This document shows positions 997 through 44,417 of a DNA stretch of 44,417 nt, one piece after another (within the stretch, counting starts at the first letter, position 1; each line of letters begins with the position of its first letter). Origin of the DNA: a virus (taxonomy: Duplodnaviria > Heunggongvirae > Uroviricota > Caudoviricetes). Where the stretch lies: the IMG/VR virus record IMGVR_UViG_2606217118_000001, one strand, 5' to 3'. The notes below the pieces were generated by a model. That model made no database searches and was not told the origin of the DNA. It was given only the letters and a program-made list of their open reading frames with translations. The position numbers were made by a program, and so were the translations under genes.

Positions 997-1080
997 TCTT
1001 AATCCAAGAACATACTCCCTACCTATAGCAAAATCACTTTTTTAACAAAAGAATAACGTATTTAGGTAATCATTACGAAT

Positions 1081-1662
1081 TTACCCTATAGGTGCTACTG
1101 GCCATTCAATATCCGGTGCAGTTGTTGTATTAACACGGTTCAGCAACACCCGATACTTCTTCCAGGCTTCCAGCAACGAGATTTCTTCCTCCGTTGCGAT
1201 TTCCAGATCTACAGCATCCTGAAGTGGCGCAATATGCTCACTGGCTACCTGCATCAGGCTGTTTTTTGTTTCTTCTGCCTCCCGGATCCGGAACAGTTTT
1301 TCTGCTTCCGTATCCTTCACCCAGGCTGTGCCGTTCCACTTCTGAAACTCCCCTTCCGGCGATAACCAGGTAACATTTTCCGCTAACGGACCGAGTTCAG
1401 AAATAAATAACGCGTCGCCGGAAGCCACGTCATAGACCGTTTTACCCCGATGGTCTTCAACGAGATGCCACGATGCCTCATCACTGTTGAAAACAGCCAC
1501 AAAGCCAGCCGGAATATCTGGCGGTGCAATATCGGTACTGTTTGCTGGCAGACCTGTATGAGGCGGAATATATGCGTCACCTTCACCAATAAATTCATTA
1601 GTTCCGGCCAGCAGATTATAAATTGTTATGGTCCGTGGTTGTTCACTCATTCTGAATGCCAT
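1081..1662 (-). CDS. tfa: Tail fiber assembly protein (lambda Tfa-like)
   Basis: 193 aa, [24 protein letters not shown]...; start overlaps stf stop. Confidence 0.9.
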
Positions 1663-4600
1663 TATGCAAGCCTCACAATATAGTTAAATGCGATGTTTTT
1701 GACGGTGTTTTCCGCGTTACCAGCAGCGTTAACGGTGATGGTGTGTCCATGTGAGCCAATCGCAACCGAGTGCGTATGAGCACCAATACCGACAGTATGT
1801 GCGTGTGCACCTGCGCTTGCAGCAGTGCCGGACAGTGAGTGGGTATGAGCACCATCTGATGATGTCTTCCCTGCATTACGAGTCTGGCCACTACCGCTTG
1901 TTGTGCTCATAATCCCCGCGCTTGGATTTGAAATCGCGGTATAACCATTAGGGAAAATGCTCGTGTTCGTGCCACCAAATGCACCGGAACTCTTGTGTTG
2001 GTGCGCACCGGCACTATTTGCGGTCCCGCTAATACTATGGGTATGCGCCCCGGTGTTATTCGTGGATTTGGTTCCGTAATCAAACGACGATGTGGTTTTC
2101 GTCCCCAAATCCGTACTGGATGCGCTGGCGCTGTGGGTATGCGATTTAATGCCGTCCTGTTCCTGAGACAATACGGCCCGACCACTGGCAGGTTTGCCCT
2201 TAATCGTCCAGCCACGCATATCAGGGATCACGCCTGACGGATAAGCCGCTGCAAGTTTCGGGTAGGCAGATTTGTCAAAAGCCTGCCCCTGCATCAGGGC
2301 ATAGCCAGACGGAACGGTATCTGATGGCCACGGGATTGGTGCGCCGACTGGGTAGCTTTCTGGTGGAAGATTTTTCGAGGTATAAACTTCTGCCCAGTCT
2401 TCCTCAAAACCATAGCCATCTCTTGAGGAACGGTAGAACAGACCTCCATTTCTGTAATGCGCCTTCATCTGCAGGGTCCGGCAACTTCCGACTCCGGTAT
2501 AGAAGTTAACCAGAATATAGCTGTCGCCAGAGCGGGTGACATTGTAAGCGCCTGATTCGGCATTCCAGGGAACGCCACCATCCGCATCGGCATATGTATC
2601 CGTTGCCCTTCTGGCAAAAGCAGCCACATGCGCGGCGGTTAAAGTAATATCTTTGGAACCATCAAACTCAACACCAGAAACCAGTCTTGGCGTTTGCAGC
2701 TTTGTTGCTGTTAATGCATTACCGTTCAGACTTGCGGACAGTTTGGTTCCAATAATCAGTTCGCCGGTTGCGTTATCAATAGCAAACGGTCTTAATGTAT
2801 TCCAGCCACCATAAACATCACCTTGATTGGTAAGCAGCAGGTAAGTTTTAGCGCCATCATTACGCCATAATGCACCATACTCCCCACCTATCATTCGAAT
2901 CTGATTACCACCACGCGCTACAATTTCGTCTGTGGCAAAAAGTTTTTTGCACGACAAGTTATCGTTAACGATTAACGAATGAGACTCATAAAAACCACGC
3001 CCACTCTTAAAATCAAGGATAACGTCCGCCGCGATACATTCAGTCGCCGGATTTGTTGCCCCAAACTTATAGGTCGTATCATTAACAACGAGATCAGCAC
3101 CAGGTGCGGATATTGACAGGCCATCTTCGATAAACGCAAAAACAGGGAAAGCAGCGCCATCAACATAGAACACAGAGCGCAAATCATCGCCCTTATTACT
3201 CATCATTATTGAGTGGATGGCTCGTTCATTGTTTTGATATTGCCAGAACATTCCATAAGCATAACGCCCCCTGTCAGTCCAGCCACCAGGCATAACAAAT
3301 CCGTTAAACTCGCAGTTATTCATCGGATCGCCTGCGGTTCGCGTTGCCGTGGTGATAATGACCCTTGATGCCAGTTCGCTTACTGAGCCAGCAGAACGCA
3401 TAACAACAACAGGGTAATATTTTCCAGATGTTGCACCTGCAGGAGCGTTAACCCGCACATAACGCATACCACGCTTATCAGCAAAGTCTGTTTTACTGAC
3501 CGCGTTAATGTTGTTCAGGAAGCGTCCCTTATCGGGTATATCAGCGCCGTTCTGGTCTTTCTGCAGACGTTTCTCTGCATTGTCATAGGCTGATTTTACT
3601 GCCTTTGGCGTTGCCGCCAGCGTTTCAGACGTACTGTTGGTCGCACTGCTGAGCTGTACTACCCCCTTTTTCGTCGTGCTCGCATCCTCAAGCGCCACGG
3701 CGGATGCAATATCCTCTGCCCGTTTTGCCGCTGTCTCGGCGCGCGTTGCCGCGGATTCCGCCGTACTTTTGCTCTGTGCTGCCGCTGCCGCACTGCCAGC
3801 TGCCTCTGTCGCCTTCGTGGATGCTGTCGTGGCGCTGCCCTTCGCTGCTGACGCCTGTCTGGTCGCCTCATCTTTTGAAGCAGACGCCGATGATGCCGAT
3901 GACGCCGCCGAACTGGCTGACGATGCGGCAGCCGTTTTTGAGGATTCTGCGCTGGTTTCCGACGCTTTCGCGTTCGTTTCGGATGTCTTCGCTGCGGAAG
4001 CAGACCTCGCTGCTGCGCTGGCCTGTTCAGTGGCTTCGCCAGCCTTCGTTGTGGCTGTTGAAGCAGACGATGCGGCACTTTCTGCCGACTTTCCGGCAGC
4101 GGTGGCACTGGCTGAGGCCTGCCCGGCACTGGCTGAGGCCTGCCCGGCACTTGTTGACGCGGCGCTGGCAGACGACGCAGCCGCTGTTTTTGAGCCTGCC
4201 GCAGCTGAGGCACTCTGTCCCGCTGCCGTTTCAGAAGACTTAGCGTTCGTCTCGGACGTTTTGGCCGCCTTCGCAGAATTTGCTGTCGCCGTTGCCGAGG
4301 AAGCTGCGCTGCTGGCGCTCGAGGCTGCGCTCGTTTCTGATGATTTTGCCGCCTCTTTTGAAGCTGACGCATCCCGGGCTGAGGTGGCAGCTTCTGACGC
4401 TTTCGTGGTCGCGGTGGATGCAGAAGTGGCTGCTGATTGTTGTGACGCTGCCGCATTCGTTTCTGACGTTTTCGCCGCAGCGGCACTGGTGGCCGCCGCG
4501 CTTTTTGAGGACTCTGCAGCGGCAGCACTTTTTTCCGCTTCAGTGGCCTTTGTTGATGCCGTTCCTGCGCTGGAAGACGCTGACTGAGCCGACGACGCGG

Positions 4601-5084
4601 CCTGTCCGGCTGACGTGCTGGCTGCGCGTGCTGAGCCTGCAGCATCAGTCGCATGGGTTGCCGCCTCACGGGCTGATGTGCCGGCATCGCTGGCTGACTT
4701 CTTCGCGGCTGCCGTGTTCTGTGCCACCGCGGACGCGTTACGCGCCACCTCTTCCACCATCAGTTCAAAACGGCGCAGAGCCTCAGGACGGGCATCATCC
4801 TCTGTCATGGCACCGAGAAAATCATTCAGCGTACCGGGTTGAGAATCTTCATACACGGTAATGGTCCCGGCATGTGATGGCGGGAATCCCTCCACCAACA
4901 GACTGACGCTGTACTGACCATACTCGACGTCCATTGTGTAACGCCCGGCTTCATCCGGGTTTTCTGAGGCCACTGTGTTCACCACCACCGTGGTGCTGTT
5001 GCGCCTGGCCTTTAGCTGAATGGTGCAGTTTTGTATCGGCTTACCTGCGCCATCTTTCAGTACACCTGAAATCCGTACTGCCAT
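1662..5084 (-). CDS. stf: Side tail fiber protein (Stf-like), 1140 aa with long Ala/Ser-rich low-complexity region and C-terminal His-rich GAHTHS motifs
   Basis: N-terminus [31 protein letters not shown]... resembles lambda Stf; SD GGGGGG upstream; internal tandem repeats. Confidence 0.85.
4108..4149. repeat. Perfect 21-bp tandem duplication (ctggctgaggcctgcccggca x2) inside stf low-complexity region
   Basis: Two identical adjacent 21-mers at 4108-4128 and 4129-4149; encodes repeated SAGQASA heptad. Confidence 0.9.
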
Positions 5085-5818: not shown

Positions 5819-8800
5819 TCAACGAATACTGATGCCGGAAGCGGCTTTTTTGGTCACAATCACCGTACAGTCGGTGATATTACCTGCCCACTGATTGCCT
5901 TTATGGAAAACCTTAAACTCCAGAGTGACGTTTCCCCTGCCACTCGGCATATCAATAACCGCACTGTAGCTACCGGGAATGGCCCCTTTAGTTTCTCTGG
6001 ATGCGATTAATACACCGTTTTTGCGAACTTCAAAACCATAACCCGTGTATCTTGTACTTCCCGGGTTATTACCACTTCCCGGATCGCTATACGCTATTCC
6101 GTTAAAGATAATGGGCGGAATAATGATTTGACGGTCAAAGTTATGATCATCGCTGATGGTGACTGTAACCGTCCCGTTTGGTGTTTCCGTATTACCCCAC
6201 GTACCAGCCTGTTTCGGGAATGATTTGGATACAGCTTTAACGAAGTCACCTCTGACCTGAGTCGCCTCCAGCATGCCCTTAATCGTACAGTTTTCATTTA
6301 CCGTGACATTGTTGAGCGTCCCGGCGTTCGCATTCACACTGCCACTGATATCCGCATTTTTAGCGGTCAGCTTTCCGTCCGGTGTCAGGGAAAATGCCGG
6401 TGGATTTCCACCGCTGGTAATGGTGGGGGCCGTCAGGCGTTTCAGGAACACGTCGTTCATGAATATCTGATCGCCCTGACCAACAAACATCGGTTTTGTG
6501 TTGCCATTCGCAGGATTAACCATCGCAATCCTGTCCGCCGCCAGCAGCACCTGACTCTGCATGCCGTCAGGGGTGTTCTCAATACCGGCACCAATACCCG
6601 CGATATAAAGGCGTCCGTCCTGCATCTGCTGCAGCTTCACAGCCCACATGCTGTTCAGGTTATTATTTGTATCAACCTGAACTTTCTGTATCTGCTGGAT
6701 TGCCGCACTCTGGTCTTCCAGTTTTTTATTGACGGTCTGCGTGATTTCATTGCTGACATTCGTAATGGACGTCCTGATTTCAGCCAGGTCCGGCGCAAGC
6801 TGACCGTTATCAATCTGCGTCCACAGCTCCTGGGCCAGATGTGTTTTCCCGATTTCTCCTTTGAAAAAATCCAGGTAACCTTCCGCATCATCGCTCGCCC
6901 GACCGACAGCCTCCACGAATGCCGATTTGCCAACAGTGTTCACACTGCGAACGTAAAAATAATAATCATGACCCGGCTTGATATTGATACTGGCAGCTAT
7001 CCAGTACAGCGCCGTGCCAAGATAGCGGGCTGTAGTTTCAACCTGCCTGATATCGGTAATCCGCTTTTCCGAGAACCAGAACTCAAACTGTACCGTCGGG
7101 TCATAAACGGCAAGATGCGGCGTTGCGGTTATCTGAAAATAGCCCGGCGTCAGTTCAATCCGCGACGGCGTCGCCGGTGCGGCAATCCGGAACAATACCG
7201 ACGCCGGATCGCCCTGCTGTCCCCACGCATTTACCGCCCGGACTGTCAGCCTGTAGTTTCCCAGCGCCAGCTGCCTGAAGCGGTATGTGGTTTCCGTCGT
7301 CCGGGCTGTGCTGACCAGCCGCTCACTGCCATCGTCCGCTGTCACGGTCAGGCGAAGCATAAAGCTCACCCCCTTCACCACCTTCGGTGTGTCCCAGCGC
7401 GCCAGCACCTGATATTCCCCGCTGTCTGCGGAGACTTCGGCTGTCAGGTGCTGTACCGCTGGCGGCGTGACACCATTCACCGTGCCGCTCAAATCGCCGT
7501 CAAAGTGCGCCCCGTTATCCACGATGGCCTCTTTTTCCGGTACATGCTGCACGGCAGTGATGGCATACGTGCCGTCATCGTTCTCACGGATACTCACACA
7601 GCGGAACAGGCGCTGGCGCAACGTCGGCAACTTCAGCCCCCATACGCTGTATCCGGCAACGCCGTCAGGAACACGGCTCACTTTTACCTTCACGCCGTCG
7701 GTGACGGACTGGACCTCCACGCTGACCGGATTGCCACTTCCGTCAACCAGGCTTATCAGCGTGGTGCCGGAAGATGGCAGCGTGATTTCACGGTCGAGCG
7801 TCAGCGTCCGGGTCTGGCTGTTCACCGCCAGCACGCGCCCGCCGGTGCTGATACCGGCATAGTCATCATCGCAGATTTCAATGACATCGCCCGGTACATG
7901 GCGAAGCCCTTCAGCACCCACGCTGAAGTCCACGGTCTGCGTTTCCAGCAGCTCCGTTTTAATCAGCCACAGCCCGGCTCGGTGTGCCTGCCCCCGGCTG
8001 GTACAGCCAAAGGCATCCATCTTCGTGACGTTACGACCATAACGGGCAATGGCCTGCGTGTCCTCCACAAGCTCTGTCGCCGTCTCCCAGCCGTTATCCG
8101 GGTCAATCCAGTTCACCTCAACGGCATTATGGCGGTCCTTGAGGGCGCTGAAGCTGTAGCGGAACGGCGCGCCATCATCCGGCATCACCACATTACTGCG
8201 GTTATAGGTCCACACCTTATCCGACGGTCGGTCCTGCACGAACGTCAGCGTCTGCCCGTTCCATACCGGCATACAGCGCATCGCCGAGCAGAAATCACTG
8301 AGCACATCCCACGCCTTGCGCTGTGTGGTCAGGTACGCATTACAGGTGATGCGCGGCTCCGTGCCGCCAAAGCCGTCCGGCACTGACTGGTCGCAGTACT
8401 GGCCGATGACATACAGCGCCCATTTGTCCACATCCGCCGCACCAAGACGTTTCCCCATGCCGTAGCGTGGGTGGGTCAGCATATCCCACAGACACCAGGC
8501 CATGTTATTGCTGTATGCTGGCTTAAACGTTCCGTCCCAGATACCGCTGTATTGCCGCGTCTGCGGGTTATAATTCGACGGCACCTGCAGAATACGCCCG
8601 CGCAGATGATAATTACGGCTCACCTGCTGGCTGCCGAACTGCTCCGAGTCCACCTGCACACCGACCAGTGCCGTGTTCGGGTAGCACTGTTTCACATCGA
8701 TGATTTCGGTGTATGACGACCAGAGCGTTTTGTTCTGCAGCTGGTCTGTGGTGCTGTCCGGCGTCATCCTGCGCATCCGTATACTGAACGGGCGCGGCGG

Positions 8801-9316
8801 CAGGTTATCCACCACCACCGAGGCCAGATACTGCGAGGTGGTTTTGCCCTTAATGGTGATGTCTTTTTCCGTCACCCAGCCACCGTTACGCTGTATCTGA
8901 ACCAGCAGGCGGACTTCCGACGGATTCCTGTCACCCTTTGAGGTGGTTTCCACCAGTGCCTGTACACCGAAGGTAAAGCGCAGACGGTCGATGTTTGCCG
9001 ACGTGATGGTCCGGGTGATCGGCGTGTCATATTTCACTTCCGTACCCAGCACCGTCTCGGAGCCGGAGGATTCAAATCCCTCCGGCGGTGACTGCTCCTG
9101 CTCACCGGCCCGGAACACCACCGTGACGCCGGATATATTGGTATTCCCCTCACTGTCCAGCACCGGCGTACTGTTCAGCAGCACGCTTTTTAATCCATCC
9201 ACCGGACCTTCAACCGGCCCTTCGCTGATGGCATCGATCACACTCAGCAGCTGCGTGGACTTCAGGTTGTCCTTCGCTTCGCGCGGGGTATGCCCCTTAC
9301 TGCTGCCTTTACCCAT
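5819..9316 (-). CDS. J: Tail tip host-specificity protein J (central fiber); C-terminal receptor-binding region differs from lambda J
   Basis: 1165 aa, N-terminus [34 protein letters not shown]... matches lambda J; C-terminal ~150 aa do not match recalled lambda sequence. Confidence 0.95.
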
Positions 9317-24078: not shown

Positions 24079-24598
24079 TCAGCAACCCCGGTATCAGTTC
24101 ATCCAGCGCGGCTGCTTTGTTCATGGCTTTGATGATATCCCGTTTCAGGAAATCAACATGTCGGTTTTCCAGTTCCGGAAAACGCCGCTGCACCGACAGG
24201 GGGATCCCGTCGAGAATACTGGCAATTTCACCTGCGATCCGCGACAGCACGAAAGTACAGAATGCGGTTTCCACCACTTCAGCGGAGTCTCTGGCATTTT
24301 TCAGCTCCTGTGCGTCGGCCTGCGCACGCGTAAGTCGATGGCGTTCGTACTCAATAGTCCCTGGCTGGAGATCTGTCTCGCTGGCCTGCCGCAGTTCTTC
24401 AACTTCCCGGCGCAGCTTTTCGTTCTCAATTTCAGCATCCCTTTCGGCATACCATTTTATGACGGCGGCAGAGTCATAAAGCACCTCATTACCCTTGCCA
24501 CCGCCTCGCAGAACGGGCATTCCCTGTTCCTGCCAGTTCTGAATGGTACGGATACTCGCACCGAAAATGTCAGCCAGCTGCTTTTTGTTGACTTCCAT
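24053..24598 (-). CDS. nu1: Terminase small subunit Nu1
   Basis: 181 aa, MEVNKKQLADIFGASIRTIQNWQEQGMPVLRGGGKGNEVLYDS... Confidence 0.95.
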
Positions 24599-24599
24599 T

Positions 24600-24830
24600 G
24601 TTCATTCCACGGCCAAAAACAGAGAAAGGAAACGACAGAGGCCCAAAAGCTCGTTTTCAGCACCTGTCGTTTCCTTTCTTTTCAGGGGGTATTTTAAATA
24701 AAAACATTAAGTTACGACGAAGAAGAACGGAAACGCCTTAAACCGGAAAATTTTCATAAATAGCGAAAACCCGCGAGGTCGCCGCCCCGTAACCTGTCGG
24801 ATCACCGGAAAGGACCCGTAAAGTGATAAT
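24600..24830 (-). other. cos: cos site (cosB, cosN, cosQ); cosN 12-nt cohesive end at 24775-24786
   Basis: Reverse complement of 24775-24786 is GGGCGGCGACCT; flanking sequence reads as lambda left end (Nu1 side) and right end (...CGTAACCTGTCGGATCACCGGAAAGG). Confidence 0.9.
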
Positions 24831-24986
24831 GATTATCATCTACATATCACAACGTGCGTGGAGGCCATCAAACCACGTCAAATAATCAATTATGACGCAG
24901 GTATCGTATTAATTGATCTGCATCAACTTAACGTAAAAACAACTTCAGACAATACAAATCAGCGACACTGAATACGGGGCAACCTC

Positions 24987-25220
24987 ATGTCAACGAAGAA
25001 CAGAACCCGCAGAACAACAACCCGCAACATCCGCTTTCCTAACCAAATGATTGAACAAATTAACATCGCTCTTGAGCAAAAAGGGTCCGGGAATTTCTCA
25101 GCCTGGGTCATTGAAGCCTGCCGCCGGAGACTGTGCTCAGAAAAAAGAGTTTCTTCTGAAGCAAACAAAGAAAAGAGTGACATTACTGAATTGCTCAGAA
25201 AACAGGTCAGACCAGATTGA
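24987..25220 (+). CDS. Small conserved prophage protein (YlcI/DUF3950-like)
   Basis: 77 aa, MSTKNRTRRTTTRNIRFPNQMIEQINIALEQKGSGNFSAWVIEACRRRL...; opposite strand to late operon. Confidence 0.6.
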   Translation: MSTKNRTRRTTTRNIRFPNQMIEQINIALEQKGSGNFSAWVIEACRRRLCSEKRVSSEANKEKSDITELLRKQVRPD

Positions 25221-25277
25221 AGCAATTTAGATAATCGTGCAGACTACGCCCCCTCATATCACATGGAAGGTTTATCT

Positions 25278-25688
25278 ATGGATCAGGTAGTCATTTTTAA
25301 ACAAATATTTGATAAAGTTCGAAACGATTTAAACTATCAATGGTTTTATTCTGAGCTAAAACGTCACAATGTCTCACATTACATTTACTATTTAGCCACA
25401 GAGAATGTTCATATTGTATTAAAAAATGATAATACAGTGTTATTAAAGGGCCTAAAAAACATTGTGTCTGTCAAATTTTCAAAGGATAGGCATCTTATAG
25501 AAACGACCTCTAATAAGCTGAAATCCAGAGAGATCACATTTCAGGAATACAGAAGAAACCTTGCTAAAGCAGGAGTTTTTCGGTGGGTTACAAATATCCA
25601 CGAACAAAAAAGATATTACTATACCTTTGATAATTCATTACTCTTTACTGAAAACATACAGAGCACATCACAAATGTTTCCACACTAA
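25278..25688 (+). CDS. Conserved prophage protein of unknown function (YbcV-like)
   Basis: 136 aa from ATG at 25278 preceded by GGAAGG; [38 protein letters not shown]... Confidence 0.6.
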
Positions 25689-25988
25689 ACCATAACGTCC
25701 GGTTTCTTCCACCATCGCACCGGAAAAGCGACTATGAGGGTAACCCTGCGTCTGTCAGCACAGTAAAATCCGGTGTGCATCGTTTTTGATTATTCCCGCA
25801 CACTCACGCAGAAGGAATTCCCCGTCGGGCTACGGTCATGGTTAATGCGGGAATACGGCGACGATACAGCGCATGATGTGTCAGGCTTGAATACCTTTAT
25901 CCGTTAAAAGGGATATCAGTTAAGTTATCCCGTGCAGGGTATAAGCCATTATCAAGCCCCCCCGTAGATAGGCTTTGTAATGACATCT

Positions 25989-26513
25989 TCAATTAATCAG
26001 CAGTTCAGGCTGTGTCACCTGCAAGATGTATTCATGCTCGACAGCCAGGACACGCTTCTCTTTCTTCCGTTCGTTCATTAACCGACTGCCGATCGTACCT
26101 TTCAGCTTTGAGCGTGTTTCTTTGATGGCGTAGCGGTGCTGCATTTCTTCGCCAATTGCCATGCGGCGGCTCAGTTGCTCTGCCATCCAGTTGAATGCTG
26201 CGATATAGCTCTCCTTGATTGCCGCAGCAGCTTTCCCGGTGAACCCCATCACAACCATGATCCAGCCATCTTTCGTCAGGCTGTACATCGGGCGAACCTT
26301 GCCCTGCTCATCGATATAATCAGCCGACGCAAAATTGCGTTGGCTAAACTCACGCGAGCAATCAGCCTTAACCTGCTCGATTTTCCTGAGAACATCACCG
26401 TGTCGCTTGCCGAAGTACTTGGCAATTTTTCTGGATGTGGTAACGACCTCTCCGTTTTTGGCTTGCACCATTTCTCGGAAGTCGAAGGCTGGAATAACTG
26501 AATGATTATTCAT
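25989..26513 (-). CDS. rha: Phage regulatory protein, Rha family
   Basis: Start at MNNHSVIPAFDFREMVQAKNGEVVTTSRKIAKYFGKRHGDVLRKIEQ (Rha-type motif); RBS AAGG upstream; longer ORF extension rejected. Confidence 0.7.
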   Translation of the reverse strand: MNNHSVIPAFDFREMVQAKNGEVVTTSRKIAKYFGKRHGDVLRKIEQVKADCSREFSQRNFASADYIDEQGKVRPMYSLTKDGWIMVVMGFTGKAAAAIKESYIAAFNWMAEQLSRRMAIGEEMQHRYAIKETRSKLKGTIGSRLMNERKKEKRVLAVEHEYILQVTQPELLIN

Positions 26514-26855
26514 AGCGTCTTTACCTTTTAGAAAGTGAGCCTGTCTCACAGAAAAGCCGCCCGAGAGAGGTCGCCACCTATAACGGCATTTCTCAGGCTC
26601 GCTTACTGAAAGGCTCTCGTTAATATGCGCGTGAGATGCGCTGTGAAATTCAGATATAAAAAGCCCCGCGAATGCGAGGCTAAATCCTGGTATTTGTAAT
26701 GAACTGGCTCTTATCTCAACGCAGCCCCTTACTGCGCGCCAGATGCTCAATATCAAGCATCAGCAATGAGATGTTTAATCTGGATTTACTCCAGAAGTGA
26801 TCACCACCCTGTCTACAGAGCCAGATGTGAAGGATGATGAGTAAAATTATCGCTA

Positions 26856-27323
26856 TCATCGAAGGCATTGCGTCCTAATGTATTCCTGAAGCGTTCTCAG
26901 TGCTGTTTGGTCGCGGATAATTCCGTCCCGGATATCGAGAACGTTTCGTCCAGCAACTGGAGAGAGTTCGACGGTGGCATCATTGCCCATGCCGGAGGCG
27001 CTGGAGGTTTCGGCTGAGGATGGCACAGGGCATTTTCCTTTGACGAGCACCCTGCCACCATTATCAAGCTTCCGCAGAAGAGCATCATTTTCAGCTTTCG
27101 CATCAGCTAACTCCTTCGTGTATTTTGCATCGAGCGCAGCAACATCACGCTGACGCATCTGCATGTCAGTAATTGCCGCGTTCGCCAGCTTCAGTTCTCT
27201 GACATTTTTGTCGCGCTGGGCTTTGTAGGTAATGGCGTTATCACGGTAATGATTAACAGCCCATGACAGGCAGACGATGATGCAGATAACCAGAGCGGAG
27301 ATAATCGCGGTTACTCTGCTCAT
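26856..27323 (-). CDS. Rz: Inner-membrane spanin Rz (i-spanin)
   Basis: Start [38 protein letters not shown] with GGGGGA SD; ATGA overlap with R stop; C-terminal half diverges from lambda Rz. Confidence 0.9.
26897..27103 (-). CDS. Rz1: Outer-membrane lipoprotein spanin Rz1 (o-spanin), embedded in Rz in +1 frame
   Basis: 68 aa with lipobox LIMVAGCSS and Pro-rich [16 protein letters not shown]. Confidence 0.8.
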
Positions 27324-27817
27324 TGTTTCCCCCACAAACAGACTTCACGCTCAATCTCACGGCGAGTCATCAGTCCTTTCCATTGATTACCGCCAGCGTA
27401 TGTCCAGCGCCGTAGCTGATCACATGCGCCTTTGATATCACCCTGGTTTATTTTGCGAAGAAGCGTCGATGTTCTGAAATTGCCAGCACCCACGTTGTAG
27501 ACGAACGAGTAAAGAGCGCCGCGCGTTGTTTCCGGTATATCGACTTTGATGTACGGGTTAATTTGTCTGGCGACAGTGGCAAGGTCTTTATTCAGGAGGG
27601 CTTTGCACTCTGCTTCGGTATACGTTTTACCGGGAATGATGTCTTTTCCTGTATGCCCGTAACATACAGTCCATACACCAACTATGTCTTTGTAAGGATT
27701 ATGTCTCACACCTTCCAGACCATCGTTACCACTTGGGCCAGTGATTAACACAGATGCTATAGCAATAGCCCCGCCACCAATAGCAGCAGCAACAGCTTTT
27801 CGTAATGATGGAGGCAT
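27320..27817 (-). CDS. R: SAR endolysin (T4-lysozyme-like, phage 21 R / DLP12 RrrD-like)
   Basis: 165 aa; N-terminal Gly/Ala-rich SAR segment [20 protein letters not shown]; E...D...T catalytic spacing; ATGA overlap with S stop. Confidence 0.9.
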
Positions 27818-28032
27818 TATCCACCTCTCGCAGCCTTGCGCTTATCTTCTTTAATCTTGAAATAAAGGTTTGTCAGGTACGTCAGCAGGCCAAATACCAG
27901 GCTACCCAGCACTCCAATTGCCGCCCACTGTGAGGGCGTGACTTTATCGAGCAGCTGTAAAAACCAGTACCCGGCACTACCTGCTGAGGTGCCATAGGCG
28001 ACACCCGTTGTTAACTTATCCATGGATTTCAT
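27817..28032 (-). CDS. S: Class II holin (pinholin, S21/EssD-like) with dual-start motif
   Basis: 71 aa [71 protein letters not shown]; two TMDs; Met1 and Met4. Confidence 0.9.
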
Positions 28033-28155
28033 AACCCCACCTCGCAGACAAAGCGGGTGTAAATTGAGGGAATACTACGAAACGTAACAGACTCGGAGTC
28101 AGTGAATAACTCAGGTATTGGGTTATCAGCTAATATCGAGACTCAAAAAATGGAA

Positions 28156-28190
28156 AAACCCGCTCGACGGCGGGTTTAAGCTGTGTGACG
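28156..28190 (-). terminator. Rho-independent terminator upstream of S (candidate tR' of short late leader transcript)
   Basis: Minus strand aaacccgc-cgtcga-gcgggttt perfect 8-bp stem followed by ttccatttttt. Confidence 0.6.
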
Positions 28191-28603
28191 AAGTAACCAC
28201 TCTTAACAGCATAACCAATTTTTTACGTACGTAAACCACTAAATGATATTTGCGAGAATGCTACCGAGTATTGAAAACACCACTACAAATACATAAGCAA
28301 ATCTCAACAAATAACCAACAAATAATTTCCAGCGTTATTTTTAGCTGGTTTAAATTGAATCTTCAAATTATAGAGCACTTATAAATAACAGCCATTAATA
28401 TAAATTGGCTAATAGATTTATTTTTATTCAGCCAAGAGCCATGAATAGGATTCGATAGAAAAAGTTCAGATAAAAATAGAGATCTACTTCACAAATCAAA
28501 TGAGAAACCAAAACTTACATCTTGAAATAATCACATTGATTAGATGAATATTTATCGCGCAGTGACATCATTTTTTAATAATAGTTCAAAAAAAGGGCTC
28601 ACG

Positions 28604-29686
28604 ATGAAAAAATTAACAGTGGCAATTTCTGCTGTAGCTGCATCAGTACTGATGGCGATGTCTGCTCAGGCAGCTGAAATTTATAATAAAGACAGTAACA
28701 AGCTGGATCTGTACGGGAAAGTTAATGCTAAGCACTACTTCTCCTCTAATGATGCAGATGATGGTGATACTACTTATGCCCGTCTTGGCTTCAAAGGTGA
28801 AACCCAAATCAACGATCAACTGACTGGTTTCGGTCAGTGGGAATATGAATTCAAAGGCAACCGCGCTGAATCTCAAGGTTCCTCCAAAGATAAAACCCGT
28901 CTTGCCTTCGCTGGCCTGAAATTCGGTGACTACGGCTCCATCGATTATGGCCGTAACTACGGTGTAGCATACGATATTGGTGCATGGACCGACGTTCTGC
29001 CAGAATTCGGTGGCGATACCTGGACCCAAACAGATGTATTCATGACTGGTCGCACCACAGGTGTTGCAACTTATCGTAACAATGACTTCTTTGGTCTGGT
29101 TGATGGTCTGAACTTTGCTGCTCAGTATCAGGGTAAAAATGACCGCACTGACGTAACTGAAGCTAATGGTGATGGTTTCGGTTTCTCCACTACTTATGAG
29201 TATGAAGGATTCGGTGTAGGTGCAACCTATGCTAAATCTGACCGCACTAATAATCAGGTTATCTACGGTAACAACAGCCTGAATGCATCTGGTCAAAATG
29301 CTGAAGTATGGGCAGCTGGTCTGAAATATGATGCGAACAACATCTATCTGGCTACCACCTATTCTGAAACCCAGAACATGACTGTTTTTGGTAATAACCA
29401 TATTGCCAACAAAGCACAAAACTTCGAAGTAGTTGCACAATATCAGTTCGACTTCGGTCTGCGTCCGTCCGTTGCTTACCTGCAATCTAAAGGAAAAGAC
29501 TTGGGTGCGTGGGGTGATCAGGACCTGGTTGAATATATTGATGTAGGTGCAACCTATTACTTCAACAAAAATATGTCCACTTTTGTTGATTACAAAATCA
29601 ACCTGATTGATAAGAGCGATTTCACGAAAGCATCTGGCGTTGCTACCGATGATATCGTTGCTGTAGGTATGGTTTACCAGTTCTAA
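28604..29686 (+). CDS. Outer membrane porin, OmpC/OmpF/PhoE family (phage-borne Lc/NmpC-like)
   Basis: Signal peptide [39 protein letters not shown]..., C-terminal ...VGMVYQF; AAGGG SD; longer upstream ORF extension rejected. Confidence 0.9.
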
Positions 29687-29711
29687 TTTGATTACTAAAA
29701 GATATGTTGCG

Positions 29712-29730
29712 GGAGGCTTTGCCTCCCCAA
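29712..29730 (+). other. Stem-loop (gggaggc-ttt-gcctccc) in porin 3' region
   Basis: Perfect 7-bp inverted repeat 26 nt after porin stop. Confidence 0.5.
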
Positions 29731-29821
29731 CATATAAGTGGCTCCCTCAAGCCACTTCCTTTAGGAGCACAACCTTGCTTCTAACTATATAAACCTTCTG
29801 TTATATATTACCCTTTATTTT

Positions 29822-29860
29822 TGGGGGCGTCTCAACGCCCCATTTTTAATAATTTTTAGT
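29822..29860 (+). terminator. Rho-independent terminator-like hairpin downstream of porin gene
   Basis: ggggcgtctcaacgcccc stem-loop followed by atttttaataattttt. Confidence 0.55.
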
Positions 29861-29874
29861 AAACAATTGGCATA

Positions 29875-30258
29875 TTAATTAGAGTTATTAACAACGATAT
29901 CCATCTCTAACCGGATATCTAATGCCATTAACATCCCTTCAATTATACCCTCAGCCTTCTGTAACCTTTTCCCGATATAACCATCAGAGCAGCAATGCTT
30001 ACCTGCCAGTGACATGAATGTCATACCGACTACATAATAATCTACTAATAAATCGTGCAAATCGCTGTTGTTCTTTTTCAGACGGGCCATGCACCCGCAA
30101 ATGATCATCGCGTCATCGTCACAACATTGCGGGCGAGATTTTACTTTTGAAGGAATTAATCCCTTAAAACCGGCGGCAATGGACGACCAGGTCACATCTT
30201 CATGATTATTAGCCGCCCACGCTCCCCAACGCTCAAGAACCATCTGAATATCACGCAT
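29875..30258 (-). CDS. Q: Late-gene antiterminator Q (DLP12 QuuD-like)
   Basis: Start at ATG giving [24 protein letters not shown]... (127 aa); track ORF begins at an upstream TTG. Confidence 0.85.
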
Positions 30259-32604: not shown

Positions 32605-32895
32605 TCATCTTTTAACTCCATATACCGCCAATACCCGTTTCATCGCGGCACTCTGGCGACACTCCTTAAAAATCAGGTTCGTGCTCATCTTTCCTTCCCG
32701 TTCTTCCCTGGTAGCAAACCGGTAATACACCGTTCGCCAGACCTTACCTTCGATAACCAGAAGACCTGCCCGTGCCATTTTAGCCGCGGCCTGATTTATG
32801 CTGGTTACTGTTGCGCCTGTTAGCGCGGCAACGTCCGGCGCACAGAAGCTATTATGCGTCCCCAGGTAATGAATAATTGCCTCTTTGCCCGTCAT
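32605..32895 (-). CDS. ren: Ren protein
   Basis: 96 aa MTGKEAIIHYLGTHNSFCAPDVAALTGATVTSINQAAAKMARAGLL... Confidence 0.9.
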   Translation of the reverse strand: MTGKEAIIHYLGTHNSFCAPDVAALTGATVTSINQAAAKMARAGLLVIEGKVWRTVYYRFATREEREGKMSTNLIFKECRQSAAMKRVLAVYGVKR

Positions 32896-38843: not shown

Positions 38844-38916
38844 GCGCGGCGTTACCGCATACCAATAACGCTTCACTCGAGGCGTTTTTCGTTATGTATA
38901 AATAAGGAGCACACCA

Positions 38917-39054
38917 TGCAATATGCCATTGCAGGGTGGCCTGTTGCTGGCTGCCCTTCCGAATCTTTACTTGAACGAATCACCCGTAAATTACGTGACG
39001 GATGGAAACGCCTTATCGACATACTTAATCAGCCAGGAGTACCCAAAAATGGAT
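38917..39054 (+). CDS. cIII: CIII (FtsH/HflB inhibitor), 45 aa, C-terminally shorter than lambda CIII
   Basis: [46 protein letters not shown]; stop TAA overlaps kil start. Confidence 0.8.
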
Positions 39055-43779: not shown

Positions 43780-44417
43780 CACAGAAAACCCCCAGCTAGG
43801 CTGGGGGTTCCGGAAAGCTTTCAGCTTTGAGCCAGTTATTAAAACCCCTTTTGATTTGTTAAAACACCTTGCGGTCTGGCAACTGCAAGTGTCAAACAAG
43901 AAATCAAAAGGGGGTCCCAATGGGGAACGAAAAGAGCTTAGCGCACACCCGATGGAACTGTAAATATCACATAGTTTTTGCGCCAAAATACCGAAGACAA
44001 GTGTTCTACAGAGAGAAGCGTAGAGCAATAGGCAGTATTTTGAGAAAGCTGTGTGAGTGGAAAAGCGTACGGATTCTTGAAGCTGAATGCTGTGCAGATC
44101 ATATCCATATGCTTGTGGAGATCCCGCCCAAAATGAGTGTATCCGGCTTTATGGGATATCTGAAAGGGAAAAGCAGTCTGATGCTTTACGAGCAGTTTGG
44201 TGATTTGAAATTCAAATACAGGAACAGAGAGTTCTGGTGCAGAGGGTACTACGTCGATACGGTGGGTAAGAACACGGCGAAGATACAGGATTACATAAAG
44301 CACCAGCTTGAAGAGGATAAAATGGGAGAGCAGTTATCGATTCCCTATCCGGGCAGCCCGTTTACGGGCCGTAAGTAACGAAGTTGGATGCAAATGTCAG
44401 ATCGTGTGCGCCTGTTA
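43780..44417 (+). mobile_element. IS200-family insertion sequence, partial (left-end hairpins plus tnpA; right end beyond window)
   Basis: Left-end palindromes cccccagc-tag-gctggggg and gaaagctttc followed by an IS200-type TnpA ORF. Confidence 0.8.
43920..44378 (+). CDS. tnpA: IS200/IS605-family Y1 (HUH) transposase TnpA
   Basis: Start MGNEKSLAHTRWNCKYHIVFAPKYRRQVFYREKRRAIGSILRKLCEWKSVRILEAECCADHIHMLVEIPPK (152 aa). Confidence 0.9.
   Translation: MGNEKSLAHTRWNCKYHIVFAPKYRRQVFYREKRRAIGSILRKLCEWKSVRILEAECCADHIHMLVEIPPKMSVSGFMGYLKGKSSLMLYEQFGDLKFKYRNREFWCRGYYVDTVGKNTAKIQDYIKHQLEEDKMGEQLSIPYPGSPFTGRK

Follow-up and report, generated by a model that had tools for sequence, protein, structure and literature searches.

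An intact porin gene of the nmpC/lc family with an IpeX-matching 3' tail between the Q antiterminator and the lysis genes of a lambda-like prophage

We analyzed a stretch of 44,417 nucleotides from a virus of the Caudoviricetes (IMG/VR record IMGVR_UViG_2606217118_000001; referred to as the window) and found at positions 28604-29686 (+) an intact porin gene of the nmpC/lc family, which encodes 360 amino acids including the signal peptide. By sequence comparison, this gene is an uninterrupted version of nmpC/lc, the porin gene of lambdoid prophages, and it sits in the same DNA module with both flanks. The cassette is real and was correctly interpreted in the initial annotation, but it is ordinary: descriptions of the porin gene, of its location and regulation, and of the accompanying small RNA (sRNA) date from the 1980s to 2006, and all of this is already known.

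The porin gene and its relatives

The longest mechanical open reading frame (ORF) for the porin in the six-frame ORF list spans 28544-29686 (+) and has 380 amino acids. The in-frame ATG at 28544 was ruled out as the start codon because both the signal peptide and the region homologous to Lc and NmpC start exactly at 28604; the sequence thus identifies the ATG at 28604, which has an AAAGGG Shine-Dalgarno sequence 7 nt on its 5' side, as the true start. The signal peptide of 23 amino acids (28604-28672, +) is identical to that annotated for lc in the PA-2 record J02580, with cleavage between AQA and AE and a mature protein starting with AEIYNK. The stop codon is located at 29684-29686 (+), and the protein ends in VGMVYQF, with a terminal Phe. 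The Pfam family Porin_1 (PF00267) matched over its entire profile (positions 1-337 of 337; E=3e-153), the NCBIfam OmpC subfamily model scored 518 bits (cutoff, 484), and phrog_410 was matched over 360 of the 360 positions (E=1e-224). The initial annotation of a complete porin gene with a signal peptide and a C-terminal YQF is hence supported at both ends of the protein and by the full-length Porin_1 match. No frameshift, internal stop codon, or IS element was found at 28604-29686, which agrees with the description of the gene as intact: the frame of 360 amino acids is uninterrupted, whereas IS5 interrupts the copies of K-12 and phage 434B after codon 346. An antisense ORF of 280 amino acids inside the porin gene (28643-29485, -) and the small ORFs of the upstream spacer (28033-28603) were without Pfam match and were discarded as non-genes.

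Alignment to NmpC, Lc, OmpC, OmpF, and PhoE, the check proposed in the initial annotation, revealed neither frameshift nor truncation. At the protein level, the porin was 91.4% identical to Lc of PA-2 and likewise 91.4% identical to K-12 NmpC after removal of IS5 and its 4-bp duplication. Higher values were obtained for the porins of the phages PhiR70_1 (99%), ev099 (98%), ev207 (94%), and Kati (92%), and lower values for the chromosomal porins OmpN (68%), PhoE (65%), OmpC (64%), and OmpF (62%). Matches to the solved structures of OmpK37, OmpC, PhoE, and OmpF extended over the full mature length, with E values between 1e-137 and 1e-120. With the E. coli porins OmpC, OmpF, PhoE, and OmpN and the Klebsiella porins OmpK37 and OmpK36, the protein shares the Porin_1 fold family, the constriction residues, the PEFGGD motif, and the C-terminal Phe. 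In the alignment, K39, R60, R99, R150, D124, and E134 were invariant with respect to OmpF, OmpC, PhoE, and OmpN, as was PEFGGD in loop 3. The identity of 62-68% to solved trimeric porins suggests that the protein forms a trimeric, water-filled outer-membrane channel. It is this same level of identity that sets it apart from the chromosomal porins OmpC, OmpF, PhoE, and OmpN, which are encoded at core-genome loci, whereas the window gene belongs to a prophage and has its own regulatory region and an sRNA tail.

The variation among the phage-borne alleles is unevenly distributed. In an alignment of six phage alleles, residues 1-181 were invariant except for the PA-2 substitutions at positions 99 and 154, and all other variation was confined to five short patches in the C-terminal half. 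By homology to the solved porins, these patches are predicted to correspond to the external loops L4-L8. Lc of PA-2 differs from the window porin by 31 substitutions and two indels (5 residues), all of which are in the C-terminal half apart from residues 99 and 154; the differences between the window porin and NmpC likewise fall in the C-terminal half, and the PhiR70_1 and ev099 porins differ from the window porin by a few substitutions only. The comparison with K-12 showed a similarly uneven pattern at the DNA level, with 98.8% identity in the spacer (28033-28603), 99.4% in the first 347 nt of the porin coding sequence, 83.4% in its remaining 3' two-thirds, and 97.9% in the 3' spacer (29687-29874). 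Judged from these identities, the porin locus is a mosaic with respect to K-12, with a distinct set of loop alleles in conserved flanks.

Genomic context and regulatory sequences

Pfam analysis of the neighbors, all of which are on the minus strand, confirmed that the porin lies between Q and the holin and runs opposite to the late genes, and the same synteny was found in PA-2, in 434B/DLP12, and in E. coli 2009C-3133. On one side lies a Q antiterminator of the QuuD (DLP12) type (29875-30258, -; 127 amino acids), which was matched by Phage_antitermQ (E=1e-53) and phrog_79, is annotated as quuD in RefSeq, and is distantly related to the Q21 structures. On the other side are an EssD-like class II holin of the phage 21 type (27817-28032, -; Phage_holin_2_1, E=2e-35; RefSeq essD), a SAR-type lysozyme as endolysin (27320-27817, -; Phage_lysozyme), and the Rz spanin (26856-27335, -; Phage_lysis), the latter two also supported by the RefSeq annotation of an identical locus. 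The ORF list further contains an embedded Rz1-like lipoprotein ORF (26897-27103, -). The cargo between the lysis genes and the terminase (24987-26756) is unlike that of DLP12 or lambda: it encodes a DUF3950 (YlcI-like) protein, a DUF1398 (YbcV-like) protein, and a Rha-family regulator or anti-repressor and is without a bor gene. The "head protein" label that PHROGs assigns to the DUF1398 protein looks like a mis-annotation.

The initial annotation had compared this arrangement with those of lc (PA-2) and nmpC (DLP12), and the likeness turned out to go beyond arrangement to the DNA module itself. The Q-to-holin interval (28033-29874; 1,842 bp) is 90.9% identical over its whole length to J02580 and 92.5% identical to the DLP12 recombinant phage 434B, whose nmpC is split by IS5, and it aligns throughout with DLP12 after removal of IS5. 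PA-2 carries its porin gene in the same orientation at the same site between Q and the holin and shares the signal peptide, two CRP sites, and the 3' tail, but its spacer contains a 16-bp insertion. With DLP12 (qsr' of E. coli K-12; nmpC is b0553), the window shares the QuuD, EssD, RrrD, and RzpD neighbors and the IpeX-matching tail. The two differ in that the K-12 porin copy is split by IS5 and that of the window is not, and in that DLP12 is defective, whereas the window prophage looks complete and lambda-like. The same cassette is present in the sequenced, propagating, and inducible lambdoid coliphages PhiR70_1, ev243, ev099, ev207, and Kati, where the gene is designated "OmpD" or "porin OmpC" (PHROG 410).

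The region upstream of the porin (28033-28603) had been described as AT-rich and as the porin's own. Its composition was as stated, with a GC minimum of 0.27 over the 570 bp, but the region is not exclusive to the porin, since it also contains the promoter and a terminator of the lysis genes on the minus strand. Most of it (28048-28603; GC 0.27-0.41) corresponds to an AT-rich regulatory spacer that includes the nmpC promoter region and is 98.8% identical to that of K-12 DLP12. A porin-proximal CRP site (28476-28496; ATAGAGATCTACTTCACAAAT) and a distal CRP site (28181-28201; CTGTGTGACGAAGTAACCACT) are each identical to a site annotated in J02580; both are conserved from the PA-2 annotation and are predicted to bind CRP and to permit catabolite-sensitive regulation. 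The promoter PnmpC of K-12 is located at most 199 bp from the ATG, has a mapped transcription start site (TSS), and is active (PMC11677980). It is activated by CRP and repressed by OmpR, IHF, and MprA, and according to 5' RACE in K-12 it is the main driver of IS5 transposase transcription (PMC11677980). A scan of 27900-30000 for consensus sigma70 promoters returned 0 sites, compared to 5.8 ± 2.3 expected from dinucleotide shuffles, so that neither PnmpC nor any Q-dependent promoter could be placed by consensus. The scan was empty even though the homologous K-12 sequence harbors at least one promoter, PnmpC, whose activity has been shown by experiment.

The minus strand of the spacer contains a homologue of the DLP12 lysis-cassette promoter (28555-28587, -), with a -35 element GAACT at 28587-28583, a -10 element TCACT at 28565-28561, and a TSS at ~28555. 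The GAACT-N17-TCACT arrangement upstream of ~28555 may represent sigmaE-like motifs. This TSS was derived from the reported DLP12 lysis-operon regulatory fragment, which extends from -121 to +650 (PMC7918800) and whose forward primer maps to window positions 28676-28657 (-); the reverse primer matched neither the window nor the compared K-12 locus, and the TSS is anchored by the forward primer and the stated -121 only. The promoter stretch is identical to K-12 and faces the holin, and its inferred TSS is 49 bp from the porin ATG. Further downstream on the late-gene strand, the scan detected an intrinsic terminator (28177-28156, -), consisting of AAACCCGCCGTCGAGCGGGTTT followed by TTCCATTTTT, 124 nt upstream of the holin start. 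It is conserved in K-12 and PA-2 and is a candidate target of Q antitermination that would resemble tR'. In the search for a Q-dependent late promoter, phage 1H12 (related Q, porin absent) was used for comparison, but nothing was shared between Q and the holin: homology to 1H12 breaks off within the C-terminus of Q and is regained 11 nt ahead of the holin start. The porin opposes the late genes and probably lies outside the lysis transcript, between Q and the lysis promoter.

Downstream of the porin, the 3' untranslated region (29687-29849, +) matches IpeX and contains four stem-loops and a terminator, with a hairpin at 29824-29841 and a T-run to 29847. According to the terminator scan, the distance from the porin stop codon to the terminator T-run (29684-29849) is about 167 nt. 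The tail (29687-~29849) folds with -61 kcal/mol (z=-8.7), and the 3' spacer of the porin is 97.9% identical to the nmpC-quuD spacer of K-12. Reviews describe IpeX as a 167-nt DLP12 RNA that is part of the porin transcript, originates from the porin promoter, and represses OmpC and OmpF (PMC12197685, PMC5069750). On this match, we assign 29687-~29849 to IpeX, with approximate ends. An IpeX-like tail was found in 2,503 of 5,426 complete E. coli genomes and was unannotated in all records listed, including K-12 MG1655 RefSeq. As indicated by this conserved IpeX-matching tail, the conversion unit is larger than the porin coding sequence. When duplex formation between the tail and the ompC leader of K-12 was predicted, the resulting pairing was physically unrealistic and did not surpass 12 of 300 shuffles. 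The prophage sRNA svsR, which limits phage infection, was considered as a relative of the tail and dismissed, since it lies in cI and is unrelated.

An Rfam scan of the whole window identified no family over the porin 3' tail. Its only hits lay elsewhere in the window. Rfam IS009 was detected at full length (229 bits; 1121-1319, -) inside an ORF of 193 amino acids (1081-1662) that adjoins a long tail-fiber-like ORF (1662-5084). STnc490, an Hfq-binding sRNA, was likewise found at full length (146 bits; 43787-43910, +) near the right end, in the early-left prophage region, and a lambda cIII thermoregulator RNA element (88.5 bits; 38903-38961, +) indicates translation control of the lambda cIII type.

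Distribution and limits of the module

Among the 5,426 complete E. coli genomes, 4,223 (78%) contained a match to the Q-to-holin interval, and 2,465 (45%) contained at least 80% of it. The interval was 100% identical in at least nine complete E. coli chromosomes. One of these exact matches, in strain 2009C-3133, is part of a complete prophage of the lambda type with its integrase next to ybhC (the att-lambda site), and RefSeq lists quuD, essD, and rrrD as its neighbors. In the window, ren is intact (32605-32895, -), whereas in 2009C-3133 it is split by an IS3-family element (24573-26176 of the compared piece); the window is therefore from a different strain or lineage.

The limits of the module were apparent from phages without the porin. 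In those with the same holin, homology ends at ~28048, from which it follows that the spacer (28048-28603) and the porin always travel together. In those with a related Q, homology ends inside the Q C-terminus, at ~29899. In the phage collection, 35 records contained Q at a coverage of at least 80% together with the 3' tail, and 36 records were porin bearing. The cassette, flanked by Q on one side and by the lysis promoter and terminator on the other, is consequently inherited along with the Q specificity module.

In lambdoid phages, the stretch between Q and the holin serves as a general slot for cargo. Other genes at or close to the porin site include those for Blc lipocalin and YbgA-like proteins, the lipid A deacylase LpxR, and a DNA methylase, as seen in the phages with related Q or holin 1H12 (1062-3788), 434B (6255-7214), and Ayreon (243-2449; coordinates of the compared pieces).

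Proposed function and alternative explanations

The tail-tip protein J of the prophage is encoded at 5819-9316 (-), and sequence identity assigns its C-terminal 250 amino acids (5822-6571, -) to the 434 host-range type: this part matches the J protein of "Lambda h434 imm21" at 88.8% identity, against 53.9% for lambda J. The J proteins of phi458 and several Stx-converting phages are 92.8-98.8% identical to that of the window. OmpC is the receptor of phage 434, and the J C-terminus determines specificity (PMC3509688). With 89% identity in the J C-terminus, the window prophage appears to adsorb to OmpC.

We consider it highly probable that the locus is best explained as an nmpC/lc lysogenic-conversion cassette with an IpeX tail, which would exchange host porins and reduce the adsorption of OmpC-dependent phages. 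On the basis of the K-12 and PA-2 literature, the porin gene would have a sigma70 promoter of its own that drives its transcription in the lysogen independently of the late operon, under activation by CRP and repression by OmpR, IHF, and MprA. The protein would insert as a trimeric 16-strand barrel and add or substitute a diffusion pore, and processing of the co-transcribed 3' tail would yield IpeX and lower the synthesis of OmpC and OmpF. As a net result, host porins would be exchanged for a phage-encoded porin with allele-specific loops L4-L8. Since the prophage J is of the 434, OmpC-binding type, this swap should lower the adsorption of related OmpC-dependent phages. It would amount to a receptor swap and superinfection exclusion while the outer membrane is kept permeable. 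For PA-2 lysogens, the Lc phenotype and the exclusion of related phages were reportedly described by Schnaitman and co-workers from the 1970s to 1986 and by Blasband et al. in 1986. Expression of NmpC can also raise the sensitivity to some colicins and phages (PMC11677980), and the net phage resistance therefore depends on the phage.

Two other explanations were weighed against lysogenic conversion. The porin may be intact yet silent cargo that is rarely expressed, confers no conversion phenotype, and persists by its linkage to Q and the lysis promoter, which we regard as unlikely. That nmpC is described as quiescent in certain E. coli strains (Prilipov 1998, cited in PMC3333887) and that the latter article counts it among the "quiescent porin genes" of E. 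coli BE is consistent with silence, as are the tolerance of K-12 to the inactivation of nmpC by IS5 and the empty sigma70 scan of 27900-30000; a cassette between Q and the lysis promoter could, moreover, hitchhike. Against this, PnmpC of K-12 is active by 5' RACE (PMC11677980) and the promoter region is 98.8% identical here, many inducible phages retain an uninterrupted porin ORF, and the restriction of variation to exposed loops suggests a displayed protein under selection. It is far less probable still that the cassette serves mainly phage regulation, in which case opposed porin and lysis promoters, antisense transcription, or both would keep the lysis genes off in the lysogen. The inferred lysis TSS does lie within the region that must hold PnmpC and the 5' untranslated region, at only 49 bp from the porin ATG, and spacer and porin always co-occur. 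However, a promoter switch needs neither an ORF of 360 amino acids nor purifying selection on the barrel combined with diversification of the loops, and phages that share this holin are functional although they lack the cassette.

Lysogenic conversion thus remains the preferred explanation. A further idea, which we advance tentatively and which may well not hold, is that the porin and IpeX are locked between a QuuD-type Q and its cognate late promoter and terminator, from which recombination could not separate them without breaking late expression, and that the porin and lysis promoters, ~10-50 bp apart, act as a mutually exclusive toggle between lysogeny and lysis. If the lock and the toggle were true, they would explain the strict linkage of Q and porin as well as the very high prevalence in E. 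coli.

In the records retrieved, the designations "porin OmpC," "OmpD," "hypothetical protein," and, in PHROG, "unknown function" are inconsistent and hide the nmpC/lc identity of the gene. None of the consequences that follow from this identity constitutes new biology. From the intact porin copy it is predicted that a third general porin, with surface loops of a variant type, may appear on the lysogen, and the lysogen may also down-regulate OmpC and OmpF. This bears on serology, on the permeation of antibiotics, and on how susceptible the cells are to phages and colicins that depend on porins.
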